Numbered from the stretch's first letter, positions 24,910 to 35,445 are shown. The stretch: DNA of 64,000 bases from Escherichia coli (GCF_003334405.1 NZ_QOWM01000001.1); one strand, 5' to 3'. Notes: generated by a model not told the origin, from the letters alone. Made by a program: numbers and translations.

Positions 24910-24982
24910 TTAATGGGGTTACCTTCGCCGTCGATGTTCAAGAAAACACCCGATAACTTTCGCTATCGGGTGTTTTTATTGA

Positions 24983-26167
24983 TTAATTCAACCGTTCAAT
25001 CACCATCGCAATTCCCTGACCGCCGCCAATGCACAGTGTTGCCAGCCCCAGCGTTTTATCGCGTGCCTGCATGGCATGTAATAGTGTGACCAGAATACGA
25101 GCACCACTGGCACCGATAGGATGCCCGAGCGCGATGGCCCCGCCGTTGACATTCACTTTCTCAGAATCAAAGCCCAGGTTTTTCCCAACGGCAAGGAACT
25201 GTGCAGCAAATGCTTCATTAGCCTCAATGAGATCAATATCCGCCAGTTGCAGCCCCGCCAGTTGTAACGCTTTTTGCGTGGCAGGTACTGGCCCCATACC
25301 CATCAATGCGGGGGGCACGCCACCGCTGGCATAACTTTTAATGCGAGCCAGGGGGGTAAGGCCTGCTGCCAGCGCCGCAGATTCTTCCATAATCACCAGA
25401 GCGGCAGCACCGTCGTTAATACCAGACGCGTTCCCAGCGGTGACTGTTCCTGCTTTATCGAAGGCCGGGCGCAATGCACCTAACGCTTCAGCCGTTGAAT
25501 TCGCTTTCGGGAATTCGTCTTGACTGAAGACGAAGGTTTTCTTTCGAGTGACAACATTTACCGGGACGATTTCGGCTGTAAAAGCACCGGACTCAATTGC
25601 GGCTGCCGCTTTACGCTGTGAATGTAGCGCCAGTTCATCCTGCATTTCACGGGTAATTCCGTACTCTTTAGCCACGTTTTCGGCGGTAATCCCCATATGA
25701 TAACCATGGGTGGCGCACATCAGGCCATCGCGCAGGATTACGTCATAAACCTGTCCGTCTCCAAGACGATAACCAGAGCGTGCTTTTGCATCGAGTAAGT
25801 AGGGGGCTAAACTCATATTTTCCATACCCCCCGCCACAATGCTCTGCGCCTGACCTGCCTGAATGGCCTGGGCGGCAAGCGCCACACTTTTAAGACCCGA
25901 ACCACATACTTTATTGACCGTGAATCCGCACACCGTTTCTGCCAGCCCGCTTTTTAACAGTGCCTGACGCGCCGGATTTTGCCCCAGCCCGGCTTGTAAC
26001 ACGTTACCCATAATCACTTCATCAACGTGTTGTGAATCGATTTTTGCACGTTCAATGGCGGCTTTAATTACTGTCGCCCCCAGGTCGATGGCGCTGGTGG
26101 AAGCGAGTGAACCGTTAAAACTACCGATAGCAGTACGTACCGCACTGACGATGACACAATTTTTCAT
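24983..26167 (-). CDS. atoB: acetyl-CoA acetyltransferase (thiolase II)
   Basis: 394-aa ORF; thiolase active-site context [10 protein letters not shown] and C-terminal CIGGGQGIA. Confidence 0.95.
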
Positions 26168-26197
26168 TTTATATTCCTTCTGTTTGTAGGGGTGCCG

Positions 26198-27520
26198 TCA
26201 GAACAGCGTTAAACCAATGACGAAAATGACACCGGAGAAGAGCAGGGCAGTGATGCAGTAGCCCATGATGTCGCGGACACCGAGTCCGGCGATTGCCAGT
26301 GCTGGCAGCGCCCAGAATGGTTGTGCCATGTTCATCCATTGCTCGCCGTAGGCGATCGCCATTACCGATTTACCGAGATCAGCGCCCAGCGCCTGGGCTG
26401 CGGGTATCACGAAAGGTCCCTGAATAACCCAGTGACCGCCGCCAGACGGAACGGCGAAGTTAATCAGTGCAGAACTAAAAAAGGTCATTACCGGGAAGGT
26501 GTCTTTGTTCGCAACATTGATGAAGAATTCGGTAATGAGTCCGCCCAGACCGGAATGCTCCATCATCAGTTGGATCCCAGCGTAGAAGGGGAATTGCACC
26601 AGAATACCGGCAGTACTGCGTGCTGCCGCGCTGATAGCACGCATATAAGCCATTGGCGTTTTATGTAGCAGCAGACCCGCAATCATAAACATCAGGTTGA
26701 CGGTATTGATGGTGATGTTGAAGCCATGTTCGCTGAAGTACATCGCAAGGTAAGCGATACCGAGTGCGCCGATGATCAACGTCAGAATGCGGCTTTCTTC
26801 CAGTCGCTCGGATGGTGGGGCATCTTTCGGTAGCTGCTTTTGAAAATCAGCCTCTTCCATGAGTAGTTTTGGATCGATACTCACCACGTCAGACGGTTTT
26901 GGCATCATCATGCGGGTGATAAATGGCATCACCACAATCAACGCCACAGTGATGAAAATGTTAAAACCACTGAACAGAGTATCGCCCACCGGGATCAGCC
27001 CGGCGATATGCTCAACCGGGTTGCCCGGTGTTGCAGCCAACAGAGGCATTGATCCAGAGAAGCCGCCACCCCAGGTGAGAAAACCAATGTAGGCGCAGGC
27101 AATGAGCAACGGATAATCAGAACCGGGGACTCGCCGGGCGACTTCACGGGCAAACATTGCGCCGACAACCAAACCAAATCCCCAGTTGATGACACAAGCG
27201 ACTGAACCGAAGAAAGTGACCAGCATGACGCCCTGTACGGGCGTCTTTGCGGCGGAGGCGGCAGTACGCAGCAAACTTTTCACCGGAGCAGAGCTGGCAA
27301 GGGCATGACCGGTAACGATGATAAGCGCCATCTGCATACCAAACGCCAGCAAGTTCCAGAAACCGTCACCCCACATTTTCACCATGCTGATCGGCGTTTG
27401 TGGTGTTAACCAAAGCGCGATCACGAATGTTAGCAATGTCAGCAACATGGCAAAGATCAGTGGATCGGGAAGCCACCGGCTGACAAAACGCGTCATAAAA
27501 CGCGATATGCGACCAATCAT
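26198..27520 (-). CDS. atoE: short-chain fatty acid transporter
   Basis: 440-aa polytopic membrane ORF between atoA and atoB. Confidence 0.9.
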   Translation of the reverse strand: MIGRISRFMTRFVSRWLPDPLIFAMLLTLLTFVIALWLTPQTPISMVKMWGDGFWNLLAFGMQMALIIVTGHALASSAPVKSLLRTAASAAKTPVQGVMLVTFFGSVACVINWGFGLVVGAMFAREVARRVPGSDYPLLIACAYIGFLTWGGGFSGSMPLLAATPGNPVEHIAGLIPVGDTLFSGFNIFITVALIVVMPFITRMMMPKPSDVVSIDPKLLMEEADFQKQLPKDAPPSERLEESRILTLIIGALGIAYLAMYFSEHGFNITINTVNLMFMIAGLLLHKTPMAYMRAISAAARSTAGILVQFPFYAGIQLMMEHSGLGGLITEFFINVANKDTFPVMTFFSSALINFAVPSGGGHWVIQGPFVIPAAQALGADLGKSVMAIAYGEQWMNMAQPFWALPALAIAGLGVRDIMGYCITALLFSGVIFVIGLTLF

Positions 27521-28167
27521 AAATCACCCCGTTGCGTATTCAGATCGGCGGCGACTTCAAACCGAGCTTCTGTTTTGGCACGCACGGTGGCTAAATCACA
27601 CCCGTCGGCAATTTCGGTGAGCCACATTTTGCCGTCAATAAAACGAAAGACAGCCAGTTCAGTAACCAGCATATGCACCGCATGTTGCGCAGTGAGTGGC
27701 ATGGTGCAGCGGCGCAAAATTTTTGCTGAACCATCTTTGGCGCAATGTTCCATGGCGATGATCACTTTGCGCGACCCGGTCACCAGATCCATCGCGCCAC
27801 CCATACCGGGCACCATTTTCCCAGGCACTACCCAGTTCGCGAGGTTTGCTTCTTCGTCTACTTGCAAACCGCCGAGCACGCAGGCATCAATATGACCGCC
27901 ACGGATTAGCGCAAATGACATGGCGCTATCAAACATGGCTGCACCGGGTAAAACACCGCACGGTTGCCCGCCAGCGTTCACCAGATCTGGATGCGCTGTC
28001 GTGACCGGGCCTAAACCGAGGAAGCCGTTTTCCGATTGCAGAGTGATATGAATACCCTCCGGTAAATAATTGGCGACCATTGTGGGTAAACCGATCCCTA
28101 AGTTAACGATGTCACCATCACGAAGCTCTTGCGCCACACGGCGCGCAATACGTTGTTTCGCATCCAT
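27517..28167 (-). CDS. atoA: acetate/acetoacetate CoA-transferase beta subunit
   Basis: 216-aa ORF; 4-nt overlap with atoE start. Confidence 0.93.
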   Translation of the reverse strand: MDAKQRIARRVAQELRDGDIVNLGIGLPTMVANYLPEGIHITLQSENGFLGLGPVTTAHPDLVNAGGQPCGVLPGAAMFDSAMSFALIRGGHIDACVLGGLQVDEEANLANWVVPGKMVPGMGGAMDLVTGSRKVIIAMEHCAKDGSAKILRRCTMPLTAQHAVHMLVTELAVFRFIDGKMWLTEIADGCDLATVRAKTEARFEVAADLNTQRGDL

Positions 28168-28829
28168 TATTTGCTCTCCTGTGAAACGATGATGTGGTCG
28201 ATAACGGCACCAGGGGTGACAATATGGTCAGGTTGCAGCTCGCCGGTTTCGACCAGTTCATCTGGCTCTACCAGCGTGATATCAGCCGCAAGGGCTATCA
28301 GGGGGTTAAAGTTGCGGGCGCTAAGTTGATAGGTCAGGTTGCCAAGTGTGTCGCAACGATGAGCGCGAATTAGCGCCAGGTCGGCGCGCAGTGGGCGTTC
28401 GAGCAGCCAGGTTTTACCGTCGAGTGTCAGTGTCTGTTTGCCTTCCTCTACGACGGTGCCGACACCCGTTGGGGTGAGAAAACCACCAAGTCCAGCTCCA
28501 CCACAGCGAATTTGCTCGATTAGCGTACCTTGCGGCACCAGAACGACGTCCATCTCACCAGATATCATGCGCCGACCTGTTTCCGGGTTGGTGCCGATAT
28601 GTGAAGCAATCACTTTGCGGACTCGACCATTGACGATGAGCGGACCGATGCCGGTATCAACAAACGCGGTATCATTGGCTATCAATGTCAGGTCGCGAAC
28701 ACCAGATTCCAGTAATGCTTCAACCAGGCGGGATGGAGTGCCAATCCCCATAAATCCGCCCACCATGATGGTCATGCCGTCACGAAAGAAGCCGGTGGCG
28801 TCTTGTAATGTCATCAATTTTGTTTTCAT
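28167..28829 (-). CDS. atoD: acetate/acetoacetate CoA-transferase alpha subunit
   Basis: 220-aa ORF; 1-nt overlap with atoA. Confidence 0.93.
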
Positions 28830-28874
28830 TTTTTATCCCTCTTGCATACACCGTTGTGGGTACAGTCAGGCAAT

Positions 28875-28890
28875 AGCAAGGGGAGTGCCA
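28875..28890 (-). promoter_or_regulatory. sigma54 (-24/-12) promoter of atoDAEB
   Basis: On minus strand TGGCAC-N5-TTGCT (plus strand agcaa-gggga-gtgcca), about 45 nt upstream of atoD ATG. Confidence 0.65.
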
Positions 28891-28972
28891 GAATGAGATT
28901 ATTGGATTTAGTTATTTAACTAATTGAATATGAAGGGATAAATTGGATGGGGATTTATAAGGAGAATGAGCG

Positions 28973-29013
28973 GCTATGCAGAAAATTGCGCACTGTGCAA
29001 ATTTCTGCATAGC
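28973..29013. promoter_or_regulatory. AtoC-type enhancer: perfect 12-bp inverted repeat GCTATGCAGAAA-N17-TTTCTGCATAGC
   Basis: Perfect inverted repeat about 100-140 bp upstream of the sigma54 promoter, in the atoC-atoD spacer. Confidence 0.6.
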
Positions 29014-29024
29014 AAGTTTTGGTG

Positions 29025-30410
29025 TTATACATCCGCCGGATCGATACCGTATTCCTGGAGTTTATACATCAATGCACGGCGACTGATGCCCAGCATTAAA
29101 GCAGTGCGGGTTCGGTTTCCTTCTTGTTGTTCCAGCACTTCCATAATGATGCGTTTTTCGACGCGTTTAATTTCCTCTTTTAAATTACGCTCACCGACAG
29201 GGGCTGTTTTTACCTCGCCAGCATTACAGACTGGCTGACGAATCTGTGGCGGAAGATCCTCAGAAAAAATGATCGGGCCTGAATTCATCACGACGGCGCG
29301 TTCAATAACGTTGGAAAGCTCTCGAATATTTCCCGGCCATGACCAGGCGGTAAGCAGTGACATTGCCATCGGATCGATGTCGATAATATCGCGCTGATTC
29401 TCACTACTGAATTTTTGCAAAAAGTGATTAGCTAACAGGGAAATATCTTCCCGGCGATCGCGCAGAGGCGGCAGTATTAAATGAATAACGTTAAGGCGAT
29501 AAAAGAGATCTTCACGGAAGGTGCCTTCTTTTACCATTGCCTGCAAGTCGCGGTTGGTGGCAGCAATGATGCGGATATCAACTTTTATGGTCTGATGGCC
29601 GCCAATCCGTTCAAATTCCCGTTCCTGTAGAATGCGTAGTAATTTGGCTTGTAGTACCAGCGGCATTTCGCCAATTTCGTCGAGGAGCAGAGTACCTTCG
29701 TTGGCTCGTTCAAATAATCCCTGACGCAAGGTTTGTGCACCAGTAAATGCACCTTTTTCATGACCAAACAATTCACTTTCGAGCAACGATTCCGGCAGCG
29801 CCGCGCAGTTGACTTTAATGAACGGCCCCTTTGCCCGCCGCGAATTGTAGTGAATCGCTCTGGCAATCAACTCTTTCCCGGTGCCGCTTTCACCGCTAAT
29901 CAAGACGCTGGCCTGAGAAAGGGCAATTTTGGCGGTGTCTTTGCAGATGTCCATCATCGCCGGGCTGTTGGTGAGAATGTGCCCCCATTGCCAGCTGGTG
30001 CTCAGTGCCTGGTGCAGATGACGGATCTCTTTTTTCATTGACTGGAGTTGTAAAGCGCGCTGAACGATTAAATTCAACTCATCGAGATCAAACGGTTTAA
30101 TAACATAGTCGAAGGCTCCGCAGCGTAGCGCTTCGACGGCGGTTTCCACTTCCGCATAGGCCGTCATCAGAATAACGGGTGTCCGGGTCTCATGGCTGCG
30201 CATCTCCTTTAGTGCCTTGATGCCGTCCATCTCTGGCATGCGGATATCCATCAACACCACATCAGGGTGAATATCGGCAAACAGGTGTAATGCTGTGCGT
30301 CCGTTGTTCGCACAATGTGTTTCGAATCCTTGTAGTGCAAAAGCGGTGCTCAGCATACGGCGAACATTATCTTCATCATCCACAATAAGGATGCGATTAA
30401 TAGCAGTCAT
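29025..30410 (-). CDS. atoC: sigma54-dependent response regulator
   Basis: 461-aa ORF; receiver domain, AAA+ Walker A GESGTGKE, GAFTGA motif, C-terminal HTH. Confidence 0.95.
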   Translation of the reverse strand: MTAINRILIVDDEDNVRRMLSTAFALQGFETHCANNGRTALHLFADIHPDVVLMDIRMPEMDGIKALKEMRSHETRTPVILMTAYAEVETAVEALRCGAFDYVIKPFDLDELNLIVQRALQLQSMKKEIRHLHQALSTSWQWGHILTNSPAMMDICKDTAKIALSQASVLISGESGTGKELIARAIHYNSRRAKGPFIKVNCAALPESLLESELFGHEKGAFTGAQTLRQGLFERANEGTLLLDEIGEMPLVLQAKLLRILQEREFERIGGHQTIKVDIRIIAATNRDLQAMVKEGTFREDLFYRLNVIHLILPPLRDRREDISLLANHFLQKFSSENQRDIIDIDPMAMSLLTAWSWPGNIRELSNVIERAVVMNSGPIIFSEDLPPQIRQPVCNAGEVKTAPVGERNLKEEIKRVEKRIIMEVLEQQEGNRTRTALMLGISRRALMYKLQEYGIDPADV

Positions 30411-32233
30411 ACAGTCTGATTTCCCTGCGGGTTGATCGGTAAAATAAGCGTGAAGGTTGCGCCGTAGCCCGGCAAACTGGCGACGCGAATATCACCCTGA
30501 TGGGCATTAATGATGCGTTGACTTAACGCCAGACCAAGCCCGGTTCCTGAGGCTTTGGTGGTGAAAAAGGGATCGAAGATCTTTTTTTGCAGCGAGAGAT
30601 CAATGCCACAGCCGTTGTCCTCTATCGAAATGGCCTGTTGTGAGTCGCTGTATTGCCAGGTTTGAATGCGAATTTTCCCTCGTGCGCTGATAGCCTGGAC
30701 GGCATTGATCAGGATATTCAGTAGTACCTGTTTGAGCAGTTCACGATCGGCGTTAATCGGGCTTAATTCATTATCCAGTTCGCTTATGAAGTCGACCCGC
30801 GCTTGTACGCCGGCGGTTTGTACCAGTACCAGAGTTTCTTCAACCAATGCATTGAGGCTGACTTGTTGCCATTGACTGTGGCGTGGACGTGAAAATTCGA
30901 GCAATTGCTGAATAACTTTGTTAATTGAATCGATTTCTTTGAGTACTACGGACAGATATTCCTGATGTATTGGGTCACTGGTTTGTTGGCGCAAGATCTG
31001 TACATAACCACGAATAGCCGTTAACGGATTACGTACTTCATGCGCGACGCCAGCCATCAGCTCACCCAGTGTGGCGAGGCGTTCTGCTTGCGCCATGCGG
31101 CGCTGGGTTTCTTTGCGGGCAGTTAAATCAGAGAAAATCACCAAAGCACCTATCATTTCACCGTGCGTGTTATGAATACGACTGGTAGTGACACTGAGTT
31201 CAATGGTGCGGTCACGACCTGGAAAACTGATCTCCAGCGCCACATGTTCGGTGCCATGTTCCAGCGTATCCAGTACTGGACTGTAGAACTGAGTATTGTC
31301 GAACAACATGGAGTAAGGCTGCCCTACCAGTTCATGGCGTTGATAGCCAGTGATAACTTCTGCTGCTGGGTTCATGGTGGTTACATCACCCTGGCGGTCA
31401 ATGGCAATGACGCCATCGGCAGCGTTTTCAATAATCAGATCGTTAAGTGTCCGCGTTTCACGCAGTGCCTGGGCGAGGTTATTAACACTCTGACTGATTT
31501 GCCCCATTTCACCGGGCAATTGTGGTAATCGAGTGGGAATATTTTGTGCCAGAGTCGAGAGGCCATCGGTGATGATATCAATATTGGCGCTCAGGCGACG
31601 GGAGAAAAGGACAATCAACAGCAGGCTTATCAGCAAACCAGCGGTGAGCACAATGATAATCCTCACATCCATTTTCCAGGCCTGGCGGCGAATATCTTCG
31701 GTTAATTCATTGGCCCAGATATAGCCGAGGATTTCACCATTACGCTCAATGGGGAGCATTGAATTCAAAATATCGCCGCGCACCTGCCTGCCTGAATAAA
31801 CTAAAGGGGTATTTGTACGCATCACTTCGCGACCAGGGTGATCTGCGGCAATGGTAACGCCGACATTATTCTGATATAGCGCTGAAGGCGCGTAGGTGAT
31901 TATCGCATCCAGCATTTTGTTGTAATAACCAGCACCGATGCCAGGGAAGGCGTGAGTGATATTTTCGGTAATGGGGGCAAGTTCTGCATTTAATGCGCGG
32001 ATACGCTCCTCACGTGGTAAGTCGATGTAGAGATCATAGCGATCGCCTAGTGCCTGATTAAGCAGGTTGACCACGGCAGAAAGTTTTTTCTCTTTTTCAG
32101 ATAAGACTGCTGAACGTCCTTCCGTTTCTACGATATAACCAATAGTAAGCGTTGGGACAATGACCATCAGGATTGCCATCAGGATCATTTGATTGCGTAA
32201 GCGGCGTGGATAAATCCACTTCATATAATGCAT
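30407..32233 (-). CDS. atoS: sensor histidine kinase of the AtoSC two-component system
   Basis: ORF track starts at 32245; probable native start MHYMKWIYPRR at 32233 (608 aa); H-box HEVRNPLTAI; 4-nt overlap with atoC. Confidence 0.92.
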   Translation of the reverse strand: MHYMKWIYPRRLRNQMILMAILMVIVPTLTIGYIVETEGRSAVLSEKEKKLSAVVNLLNQALGDRYDLYIDLPREERIRALNAELAPITENITHAFPGIGAGYYNKMLDAIITYAPSALYQNNVGVTIAADHPGREVMRTNTPLVYSGRQVRGDILNSMLPIERNGEILGYIWANELTEDIRRQAWKMDVRIIIVLTAGLLISLLLIVLFSRRLSANIDIITDGLSTLAQNIPTRLPQLPGEMGQISQSVNNLAQALRETRTLNDLIIENAADGVIAIDRQGDVTTMNPAAEVITGYQRHELVGQPYSMLFDNTQFYSPVLDTLEHGTEHVALEISFPGRDRTIELSVTTSRIHNTHGEMIGALVIFSDLTARKETQRRMAQAERLATLGELMAGVAHEVRNPLTAIRGYVQILRQQTSDPIHQEYLSVVLKEIDSINKVIQQLLEFSRPRHSQWQQVSLNALVEETLVLVQTAGVQARVDFISELDNELSPINADRELLKQVLLNILINAVQAISARGKIRIQTWQYSDSQQAISIEDNGCGIDLSLQKKIFDPFFTTKASGTGLGLALSQRIINAHQGDIRVASLPGYGATFTLILPINPQGNQTV

Positions 32234-32399
32234 GCTGAAATCCACTAGTCTTGTCCGGTATATGACGATTATCAGAGGTTAAGGTGATGATTTCTCGGCG
32301 GTGTATCATATTCCAGAGAAGAGAGAACATTGCGGTAACACGCTTTTACCGCTACCTTAACCACACTCCATCGGTCACCTGAGGCGGAGCTTCGCCCCT

Positions 32400-35249
32400 T
32401 TGAAATACCTTGCTTCTTTTCGTACAACCCTGAAAGCCTCGCGCTACATGTTCAGAGCATTGGCGTTAGTGCTCTGGCTGTTGATTGCTTTTTCATCCGT
32501 TTTTTACATCGTTAATGCGTTACATCAGCGAGAATCGGAAATTCGTCAGGAATTTAATCTGAGTTCCGATCAGGCTCAGCGCTTTATTCAACGCACCTCT
32601 GATGTGATGAAAGAGCTGAAGTACATCGCCGAAAATCGCTTATCGGCAGAAAACGGTGTGCTTTCCCCGCGTGGACGAGAAACGCAGGCGGATGTGCCTG
32701 CGTTTGAACCGCTGTTTGCCGACTCCGATTGTTCCGCAATGAGTAACACCTGGCGAGGTTCTCTGGAGTCATTGGCGTGGTTTATGCGCTACTGGCGCGA
32801 TAATTTTTCTGCGGCTTACGATCTAAACCGGGTATTTTTAATCGGCAGCGATAACCTCTGCATGGCCAATTTCGGTCTGCGTGATATGCCAGTGGAACGC
32901 GATACCGCGTTGAAAGCTTTGCATGAACGCATCAATAAATATCGAAATGCACCACAAGATGATAGCGGCAGTAACCTCTACTGGATCAGCGAAGGTCCGC
33001 GCCCTGGCGTCGGGTATTTTTACGCGTTGACGCCAGTTTATCTGGCGAACCGGTTGCAGGCGCTTTTGGGTGTCGAGCAGACCATCCGGATGGAGAACTT
33101 TTTCTTACCGGGTACGTTGCCGATGGGGGTTACCATTCTTGATGAAAATGGTCATACCCTGATTTCGCTTACCGGACCAGAAAGTAAAATTAAGGGCGAT
33201 CCTCGCTGGATGCAGGAACGCTCCTGGTTTGGCTATACGGAAGGGTTCCGGGAGCTGGTGCTGAAGAAAAATCTGCCACCCTCATCGCTAAGCATCGTGT
33301 ATTCGGTGCCGGTTGATAAGGTGCTGGAACGCATTCGCATGTTGATCCTTAACGCAATTTTGCTGAATGTGCTTGCCGGAGCTGCATTGTTTACTCTCGC
33401 ACGGATGTACGAGCGACGTATTTTCATTCCGGCGGAAAGCGACGCCCTGCGACTGGAAGAACATGAGCAGTTCAATCGCAAGATTGTCGCCTCCGCGCCA
33501 GTGGGTATCTGCATTTTGCGTACCGCTGATGGCGTCAATATTTTAAGTAACGAACTGGCGCATACCTATCTCAATATGCTTACGCATGAGGACCGCCAAC
33601 GACTGACGCAAATTATCTGTGGGCAGCAGGTCAATTTTGTTGATGTCCTGACCAGCAACAATACCAATCTGCAAATCAGCTTCGTCCATTCGCGCTATCG
33701 TAATGAAAACGTGGCCATTTGTGTGCTGGTGGATGTTTCTTCGCGCGTGAAGATGGAAGAGTCGTTGCAGGAGATGGCACAAGCAGCGGAACAGGCGAGC
33801 CAGTCAAAATCGATGTTCCTTGCCACCGTCAGTCATGAGCTGCGAACGCCGCTGTATGGCATTATCGGTAACCTGGATCTGTTGCAAACCAAAGAGTTAC
33901 CGAAAGGCGTCGATCGGCTGGTGACGGCAATGAACAACTCTTCCAGCCTGTTGTTGAAAATTATCAGCGATATTCTCGATTTCTCGAAGATTGAATCGGA
34001 ACAGTTGAAGATCGAACCGCGTGAGTTTTCACCGCGTGAAGTGATGAACCACATCACCGCCAACTATTTACCGCTGGTGGTACGCAAGCAGTTAGGCTTG
34101 TACTGCTTTATTGAACCGGATGTGCCAGTGGCCTTAAATGGCGACCCGATGCGTTTACAGCAGGTCATCTCCAACCTGTTGAGTAACGCCATAAAATTCA
34201 CCGATACCGGCTGTATAGTTTTGCATGTTCGCGCGGATGGCGATTATCTCTCTATCCGTGTTCGCGATACCGGCGTGGGGATACCGGCGAAAGAAGTGGT
34301 GCGCTTGTTTGATCCCTTCTTCCAGGTCGGAACGGGCGTACAGCGTAATTTCCAGGGGACCGGTCTGGGTCTGGCGATTTGTGAAAAACTGATCAGCATG
34401 ATGGACGGCGATATCTCGGTAGATTCAGAACCGGGAATGGGCAGCCAGTTTACCGTGCGTATTCCGTTGTACGGCGCTCAGTACCCGCAGAAAAAAGGCG
34501 TGGAAGGGTTGAGTGGTAAACGCTGCTGGCTGGCGGTCCGCAATGCGTCGCTCTGTCAGTTCCTGGAAACCAGTTTGCAGCGCAGCGGCATCGTCGTTAC
34601 AACATACGAAGGGCAGGAACCGACTCCCGAAGATGTGTTGATCACTGACGAGGTAGTGAGTAAAAAATGGCAGGGCAGAGCGGTAGTGACCTTCTGTCGT
34701 CGCCATATTGGTATTCCGCTGGAGAAAGCGCCAGGGGAGTGGGTACACAGTGTGGCTGCTCCGCATGAGCTACCGGCATTGTTGGCGCGTATTTATTTGA
34801 TCGAGATGGAGAGCGACGATCCTGCTAACGCTCTGCCGTCAACGGACAAAGCGGTCAGCGATAATGACGATATGATGATTCTGGTCGTGGATGATCATCC
34901 GATTAACCGGCGTTTGCTGGCAGATCAGTTGGGATCGTTGGGCTATCAATGTAAAACCGCGAATGATGGCGTCGATGCGCTTAATGTACTTAGCAAGAAT
35001 CATATTGATATCGTGCTTAGCGACGTCAACATGCCAAATATGGATGGTTACCGCTTGACGCAACGCATTCGTCAGTTGGGACTGACGTTGCCGGTAATCG
35101 GAGTAACTGCTAATGCGTTGGCTGAAGAGAAGCAGCGGTGTCTGGAGTCCGGTATGGACAGCTGCCTGTCGAAGCCGGTAACGCTGGATGTGATAAAACA
35201 GACGCTGACGTTATATGCCGAGAGGGTCAGGAAATCGCGGGATTCGTAG
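32400..35249 (+). CDS. rcsC: hybrid sensor histidine kinase of the Rcs phosphorelay
   Basis: 949-aa ORF; H-box SHELRTPL; C-terminal receiver domain (VVDDHPINRRLL...). Confidence 0.95.
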   Translation: MKYLASFRTTLKASRYMFRALALVLWLLIAFSSVFYIVNALHQRESEIRQEFNLSSDQAQRFIQRTSDVMKELKYIAENRLSAENGVLSPRGRETQADVPAFEPLFADSDCSAMSNTWRGSLESLAWFMRYWRDNFSAAYDLNRVFLIGSDNLCMANFGLRDMPVERDTALKALHERINKYRNAPQDDSGSNLYWISEGPRPGVGYFYALTPVYLANRLQALLGVEQTIRMENFFLPGTLPMGVTILDENGHTLISLTGPESKIKGDPRWMQERSWFGYTEGFRELVLKKNLPPSSLSIVYSVPVDKVLERIRMLILNAILLNVLAGAALFTLARMYERRIFIPAESDALRLEEHEQFNRKIVASAPVGICILRTADGVNILSNELAHTYLNMLTHEDRQRLTQIICGQQVNFVDVLTSNNTNLQISFVHSRYRNENVAICVLVDVSSRVKMEESLQEMAQAAEQASQSKSMFLATVSHELRTPLYGIIGNLDLLQTKELPKGVDRLVTAMNNSSSLLLKIISDILDFSKIESEQLKIEPREFSPREVMNHITANYLPLVVRKQLGLYCFIEPDVPVALNGDPMRLQQVISNLLSNAIKFTDTGCIVLHVRADGDYLSIRVRDTGVGIPAKEVVRLFDPFFQVGTGVQRNFQGTGLGLAICEKLISMMDGDISVDSEPGMGSQFTVRIPLYGAQYPQKKGVEGLSGKRCWLAVRNASLCQFLETSLQRSGIVVTTYEGQEPTPEDVLITDEVVSKKWQGRAVVTFCRRHIGIPLEKAPGEWVHSVAAPHELPALLARIYLIEMESDDPANALPSTDKAVSDNDDMMILVVDDHPINRRLLADQLGSLGYQCKTANDGVDALNVLSKNHIDIVLSDVNMPNMDGYRLTQRIRQLGLTLPVIGVTANALAEEKQRCLESGMDSCLSKPVTLDVIKQTLTLYAERVRKSRDS

Positions 35250-35251
35250 GA

Positions 35252-35445
<194 letters not shown>

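Follow-up and report, generated by a model that had tools for sequence, protein, structure and literature searches.

A sigma-54 promoter and an AtoC enhancer dyad in the regulatory region of the Escherichia coli atoDAEB operon

In a stretch of 64,000 nucleotides of Escherichia coli DNA (the window), the segment between atoC and atoD is, with a probability that we put at about 0.95, the native regulatory region of the atoDAEB operon, formed by a sigma-54 promoter and an AtoC enhancer. None of the evidence contradicts this explanation. The atoC-atoD spacer (195 bp) is 100% identical to that of E. coli K-12 MG1655, and the wider segment 28780-29080 matches NC_000913.3 with 100% identity at about 2,323,200-2,323,500, between atoC (b2220) and atoD (b2221). 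This is the locus of the K-12 promoter Pato, whose AtoC palindrome was described by Pilalis et al. 2011 (BMC Genomics 12:238, PMC3118216). The window reads as the reverse complement of the K-12 numbering and shows no other difference: both 20-bp AtoC sites and the 17-mer of the sigma-54 promoter are letter-identical to those published. For the identical sequence, sigma-54 occupancy (PMC4591121), AtoC binding in vivo (PMC3118216), and dependence on AtoSC and acetoacetate (PMC7618054, PMC3118216) have been published. The feature itself is already fully known; what is mildly new is the pattern of conservation across genera and phyla, and the recognition that the inner part of the repeat, at first sight a spacer, is a conserved core.

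The genes were assigned from ORFs and NCBIfam models. The features of the locus, in the direction of transcription, are the following:

30407-32245, minus strand: atoS, sensor histidine kinase (AtoS equivalog, 997 bits against a cut-off of 646)
29025-30410, minus strand: atoC, sigma-54-dependent response regulator and enhancer-binding protein (AtoC equivalog, 1004 bits against a cut-off of 714)
28994-29013, minus strand: distal AtoC site GCTATGCAGAAATTTGCACA (atoD coding strand), outer arm of the enhancer, starting 12 nt past the atoC stop
28986-29000, minus strand: inner core TTTGCACA-G-TGCGCAA (TTGCACA-G-TGCGCAA), with two TGCRCA hexamers, the "spacer" of the initial annotation
28973-28992, plus strand: proximal AtoC site GCTATGCAGAAAATTGCGCA (read on the plus strand), inverted partner of the distal site and equal to the published site
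28917-28929, minus strand: IHF-like box ATTCAATTAGTTA, about -65 to -53, one mismatch to WATCAANNNNTTR, a weak consensus
28875-28891, minus strand: sigma-54 -24/-12 promoter CTGGCACTCCCCTTGCT, GG at 28889/28888 and GC at 28877/28876
28864-28867, minus strand: predicted transcription start, at 28864 by the motif-centre+19 rule and presumably at 28866-28867 by the footprint numbering
28830-28863, minus strand: atoD leader, with the Shine-Dalgarno sequence GAGGGA at 28841..28836 and a conserved GTACCCA block
28167-28829, minus strand: atoD (acetate CoA-transferase alpha equivalog, 445 bits against a cut-off of 315)
27517-28167, minus strand: atoA (only the broader family model TIGR02428 passed)
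26198-27520, minus strand: atoE (only the broader family model TIGR00366 passed)
24983-26167, minus strand: atoB (only the broader family model TIGR01930 passed)
24983-28829, minus strand: the atoD-atoA-atoE-atoB operon driven by the sigma-54 promoter

On the minus strand, the spacer thus reads as the 41-bp dyad, an AT-rich stretch, CTGGCACTCCCCTTGCT, and a 46-nt stretch ending with GAGGGA before the atoD ATG (28829). A GAFTGA-bearing AAA+ enhancer-binding protein is encoded adjacent to a sigma-54 promoter: by Pfam, AtoC consists of Response_reg, Sigma54_activat (E = 2e-75, AAA+ with lid) and HTH_8 (Fis-type) domains; GAFTGA is found at residue 220, and the aspartate D55 has its usual receiver surroundings. 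The atoS ORF as listed has 612 aa and a GTG start a few codons upstream of the point where the alignment to the AtoS model begins, and the gene may in truth start a few codons later. Overlaps between the atoS stop and the atoC start (4 nt, 30407-30410), between atoD and atoA (1 nt, 28167), and between atoA and atoE (4 nt, 27517-27520) suggest translational coupling. Seven nucleotides past the atoB stop, a perfect hairpin with 12-nt arms, AAAAACACCCGATAGCGAAAGTTATCGGGTGTTTT (24943-24976), is flanked by T/A runs on both sides and looks like an intrinsic terminator closing the operon. Two further perfect intergenic inverted repeats, GCCAGATAAGAC...GTCTTATCTGGC at 35407-35438, after an rcsC-sized ORF, and GCCACATCCGGCAT...ATGCCGGATGTGGC at 47174-47206, resemble REP-type extragenic palindromes.

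The initial annotation had described the enhancer as a perfect 12-bp inverted repeat, and this repeat is indeed present as GCTATGCAGAAA (28973-28984) and TTTCTGCATAGC (29002-29013) with 17 nt between. Its outer arms are perfect as described; the repeat finder, however, extends them inward to 28973-28992 and 28994-29013, 20 nt each, with 18/20 positions complementary and one central base. As the arms reach this far inward, the 17 nt are part of the element, and the true site is 20+1+20 bp. The repeat also lies upstream of the promoter, as had been claimed, but at 83-123 bp from the first base of TGGCAC rather than at about 100-140. The centre of the 41-bp dyad (28973-29013) is 105 bp upstream of the -24 GG, and the dyad spans about -109 to -149 relative to the start at 28864 predicted by the rule of the sigma-54 ChIP-seq paper.

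The inverted repeat is far above chance. Repeats with 20-nt arms, at least 18 matches, and a gap of at most 3 are expected 4e-4 times per 64 kb, occur once in the window, and were found in 0/100 first-order Markov simulations. The 20-mer half-site pattern, with 3 mismatches allowed, matches the two arms and nothing else in the window (0.01 matches expected). The dyad also agrees with what is known of AtoC binding. Counted from the atoD start codon, Table 5 of PMC3118216 puts the AtoC sites GCTATGCAGAAATTTGCACA at -184..-165 and GCTATGCAGAAAATTGCGCA at -163..-144, and these distances convert exactly to 29013..28994 and 28992..28973. Sequences and distances from the atoD start therefore agree with the published AtoC positions, and the assignment of the palindrome to AtoC holds, as both 20-mers are positive in AtoC ChIP in vivo in that study. 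Citing earlier work, the same paper also describes an experimentally verified 40-bp palindrome that governs inducibility and AtoC binding, and AtoC binding in vivo that is inducible by acetoacetate (PMC3118216).

A scan of species-representative genomes for AtoC gave a divergent Escherichia with 90% identity in AtoC and five species of Citrobacter with 83-86%, which together with E. coli formed a seven-sequence alignment of the spacer; the same scan gave two distant loci at 56% identity (L008 and L009). Conservation is distributed in blocks. Invariant columns among the seven taxa make up 76% of the dyad, 11% of spacer A, 29% of the IHF-like block (75% mean identity to E. coli), 5% of spacer B, 65% of the sigma-54 17-mer (11/17 positions), and 66% of the leader. 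Despite the scrambled spacers, every one of the seven keeps 105-108 bp between the dyad centre and the -24 GG, and 48 nt between GC and the ATG. Changes within the dyad can be symmetric: position 9 is G>A in both arms of the divergent Escherichia, and position 12 is A>T in both arms of Citrobacter. Conversely, the A/G difference between the arms at position 18 (CACA vs CGCA) is invariant in 7/7 taxa.

The same alignment overturns the view of the 17 nt as a spacer, as they hold the most conserved part of the AtoC site: apart from the central base, the inner core is invariant in all seven enterobacterial sequences (TTGCACA-s-TGCGCAA). The two distant loci, from metagenome-assembled genomes of Nitrospiraceae (L008) and Deltaproteobacteria (L009), carry atoS followed by atoC. 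Their AtoS proteins score above the cut-off, and their AtoC proteins reach 722 bits (L008) and 713 bits (L009) against a cut-off of 714. Downstream lie atoD-atoA in L008 and, in L009, an AtoE-like transporter that is below its cut-off. Just past the atoC stop, both loci have a dyad: TGCATA-GG-TGCGCA...TGCGCA in L008 (region 4376-4510) and AGCGCA...TGCGCA-GG-TGCGCA in L009 (region 4362-4535). A sigma-54 motif, TGGCATGTC[T/C][G/A]TTGC (TGGCAT-N5-TTGC), follows about 75 bp downstream in L008 and about 130 bp downstream in L009. By this shared layout, the cassette of regulator, enhancer, and promoter is old or mobile as a unit. The portion of the site common to the enterobacteria and to the two distant loci is the inner hexamer pair. 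It is conceivable, though we hold it only tentatively, that the AtoC site is defined by this conserved inner core, TGCRCA hexamers 7-8 bp apart with lineage-specific outer arms, and not by two identical 20-bp halves. If this is true, the core would be an AtoC box shared across phyla, with which AtoC regulons could be predicted.

The dyad could also be read at the level of RNA, with the inverted repeat working mainly or additionally as a 3'-terminal hairpin of the atoSC mRNA, in termination or stabilisation. The predicted hairpin is stable (-23.3 kcal/mol, z = -6.2 vs shuffles), the repeat begins 12 nt past the atoC stop, and the symmetric changes in the two arms preserve pairing. However, the hairpin has no U-tract and is not called by the terminator scan; its tail, CGCUCAUUCUCC, is pyrimidine-rich, lacks a U run, and is not conserved. 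Moreover, the A-C mismatch that results at arm position 18 is invariant in 7/7 taxa, which fits recognition by a sequence-specific protein and not selection for a stable stem, and the inner bases of the hairpin are the cross-phylum TGCRCA core. The published ChIP and mutagenesis (PMC3118216) also assign the site to AtoC. With no U-tract, no call by the scan, and an invariant A-C mismatch, a main role of the dyad as an intrinsic terminator is unlikely, and we rejected it; we consider the RNA reading as a whole improbable. A minor effect of the hairpin on the 3' end of the atoSC mRNA may exist, and a transcribed dyad that also shapes this end is a possibility alongside its role as the AtoC enhancer.

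The promoter element of the preferred reading, TGGCAC-N5-TTGCT, had been placed upstream of atoD on the coding strand, and it is found there at 28890..28875 of the minus strand; its 3' end lies 46 nt ahead of the first ATG base (28829), in good agreement with the claimed distance of about 45 nt. Within TGGCAC-N5-TTGCW, the GG and GC doublets are one helical turn apart, and the motif lies in the non-coding 195-bp atoC-atoD spacer, oriented towards atoD. The exact consensus TGGCAC-N5-TTGCW occurs once in the window, against 0.15 expected. A position weight matrix was built from the 41 other intergenic sense sites of the ChIP-seq study, with atoD left out, and the atoD site came out on top of the window at 14.2 bits, below the median of the known sites because of its C-rich spacer. 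Independent support is experimental. The sigma-54 ChIP-seq site OS21 of Bonocora et al. 2015 (PMC4591121) is CTGGCACTCCCCTTGCT, with atoD as the downstream gene and the EcoCyc status "C", experimentally confirmed, and Shimada et al. 2021 (PMC8743547) found a gSELEX peak of the RpoN holoenzyme in the atoC>atoD spacer. With a 17-mer that is letter-identical to OS21 and an RpoN peak in the same spacer, the identification as a sigma-54 promoter is well founded. A Pato-GFP reporter answers to acetoacetate and is silent in atoS, atoC, and atoSC mutants (PMC7618054).

Secondary matches to the matrix, at 12.1-12.6 bits, lie within coding sequence at 32772-32788, 30986-31002, and 8909-8925 (an rcsC-sized ORF with 12.6 bits, atoS in antisense with 12.3 bits, and one further ORF). 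We rejected them as promoters on account of their chance-level scores. The main text and tables of PMC4591121 mention neither rcsC nor atoS.

By itself, the promoter motif is not significant, because about 2.0 sites scoring at least 14.2 bits are expected by chance per 64 kb on both strands of random sequence of the same composition. TGGCAC-N5-TTGCT could then be a chance match, with transcription of atoDAEB coming from a different promoter or from atoSC read-through, some of which is conceivable as the terminator scan detected no terminator between atoC and atoD. It is position and strand that make the match significant: within the 195-bp spacer, counting the correct strand alone, about 0.003 such sites are expected. 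The ChIP-seq site is the same sequence and the gSELEX peak falls in the spacer (PMC4591121, PMC8743547), and GG and GC are invariant in seven taxa whereas just 5% of the adjoining spacer is. A scan for sigma-70-like promoters in 28600-29300 found none, and the idea of an alternative promoter was dropped on this ground; a chance match is very improbable. It is just as improbable that the dyad is the operator of a dimeric regulator other than AtoC, such as a repressor. Symmetry by itself does not name the binding protein, but AtoC ChIP on these 20-mers is acetoacetate-inducible in vivo (PMC3118216), the dyad lies directly past the atoC stop in every orthologous locus examined, two of them in other phyla, and its distance of about 105 bp from the sigma-54 promoter, on the upstream side, is what one expects of an enhancer and not of a repressor operator.

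The architecture of a sigma-54 promoter with an AtoC enhancer stands, although the initial annotation had omitted the IHF-like element between the two. In the atoC-atoD spacer, ATTCAATTAGTTA is the sole match to WATCAANNNNTTR with at most one mismatch. In 5/7 taxa its core, ATTCAAnnnnTTA, is kept amid scrambled flanks, with 64-65 bp to the dyad centre and 40-42 bp to the GG. Citrobacter R56 has a degenerate version, AATTAATATCTTA, at the same distance, and C. werkmanii has no box that can be recognised in the seven-taxon alignment. An earlier study of the K-12 atoDAEB promoter and the AtoC palindrome, Matta et al. 2007 (J Bacteriol 189:6324), reportedly describes in its abstract a DNase I footprint from -146 to -107 relative to the start, sigma-54 dependence, and a requirement for IHF. 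Conservation, taken together with this reported requirement, suggests that IHF acts at the box. A literature search for IHF at atoDAEB returned nothing relevant.

Transcription probably starts about 35-38 nt before the atoD ATG. The numbering of the footprint, which we take to run from -146 to -107, would put the start at 28866-28867, only 2-3 nt from where the ChIP-seq rule places it. By that rule, the predicted start of OS21 is 35 nt from atoD (PMC4591121), which in window coordinates corresponds to a motif centre at 28883 and a start at 28864. From this predicted start to the base before the ATG (28864..28830), 23/35 positions are invariant in the seven taxa, the GTACCCA block included. Across Escherichia and Citrobacter, the conservation of the leader equals that of the promoter itself. 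In K-12 sequences compared by eye, CTGTACCC (28865..28858) is perfectly complementary to GGGTACAG, nucleotides 4-11 of Spot 42, and 6/8 of its bases are kept in Citrobacter. PMC7618054, citing Beisel et al. 2012, lists atoD as a Spot 42 target. For full-length Spot 42 against the leader, the duplex energy was not better than that of shuffles, by a method that ignores intramolecular structure. Scanned against Rfam at E <= 1, the segment 28500-29400 yielded nothing but a sub-threshold, meaningless snoRNA match, and the spacer and leader are without known structured RNA.

The model best supported by these observations is the classical mechanism of enhancer-dependent activation. Sigma-54 RNA polymerase would wait as a closed complex at 28891..28875, on the -24/-12 element. 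AtoS would sense acetoacetate and phosphorylate AtoC at D55, and phospho-AtoC would bind the 41-bp dyad at 28973-29013 and oligomerise. The AT-rich DNA would then bend, with IHF at the conserved ATTCAAnnnnTTA box (about -65 to -53) as the most likely cause, and the AtoC ATPase would reach the promoter, where its GAFTGA loop would remodel sigma-54 with ATP hydrolysis so that the promoter opens. For the looping geometry and the position of the bend, we infer the arrangement from conservation and from the IHF requirement that has reportedly been described.

Within E. coli, the atoC-atoD region was found in 3,925 of 5,426 complete genomes and is missing from 1,501. In strain KH_005, the match is limited to 68 bases within atoC, and in strain C25 atoC is frameshifted. 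These absent or damaged copies show the locus to be variably present or decaying in the species. Among 3,924 matching genomes, the spacer is at least 99% identical in 1,989 and less than 95% identical in 795. Of the 3,924, 3,543 carry an identical 41-bp dyad, and the other 381 carry one with at least 95% identity (one or two differences). One dyad variant that was read, T>A at 28985, makes the arms more symmetric and equals the state of the divergent Escherichia. Over a 36-mer around the promoter, 1,998 genomes show no difference, 1,861 have 95-99% identity, and 63 have 90-95%; one allele with two mismatches was read, and its changes fall at non-consensus positions, 28881 (in the N5) and 28871 (after the -12 element).

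Three divergent spacer alleles were aligned, and they differ nearly exclusively in spacer A or B, with the dyad, the IHF-like box, and the 17-mer unchanged. The exceptions are G/C at 28871, in all three, and a single-base difference at 29023, past the atoC stop and ahead of the dyad. Position 28871 is G in K-12-type alleles and C in the other alleles read, in the divergent Escherichia, and in the five Citrobacter species. One copy of a short direct repeat lies in the promoter. The 9-bp sequence TGGCACTCC, the -24 element plus three bases (TGCACTCC with a G before it), occurs at 28882-28890 and again at 28735-28743, where the second copy lies inside atoD, 147 bp from the first. E. coli CUVM53 (L084 2636-2650) has a 147-bp deletion exactly between the two copies, which takes out the -12 element, the leader, and the first atoD codons, and atoD is annotated there as a pseudogene.

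This locus can serve as a positive control, as a textbook sigma-54 promoter with its enhancer was correctly recovered from raw sequence, and it leaves current understanding unchanged. Pato is used in acetoacetate biosensors (PMC7618054). For promoter engineering, the conserved inner TGCRCA core, the IHF-like box, the spacing of 105-108 bp, and the leader block could serve as a guide.

Finally, the region can be compared with other sigma-54 systems. The glnAp2/NtrC system of enteric bacteria is the paradigm of a sigma-54 promoter with upstream activator sites. The ato system resembles it in its regulator, with receiver, AAA+, and Fis-type HTH domains (AtoC scores 476 bits on the NtrC model), in the dyads more than 100 bp upstream of the -24/-12 element, and in activation by looping and ATP hydrolysis. 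It differs in the regulator itself, in the signal (acetoacetate), and in the sequence of the sites; moreover, the two AtoC sites abut as one 41-bp dyad, and an IHF-like box precedes the promoter. A metabolic parallel is prpBCDE/PrpR, likewise a short-chain acyl-CoA catabolic operon on a sigma-54 promoter, which in Salmonella is sigma-54- and IHF-dependent, a result cited in PMC2965739. The sigma-54 site of E. coli prpB, GTGGCACACCCCTTGCT, differs from the atoD site at just 2/17 positions. However, PrpR is not a two-component response regulator and its gene is divergently transcribed, whereas atoC is co-directional with its operon and the enhancer begins 12 nt past the atoC stop codon.
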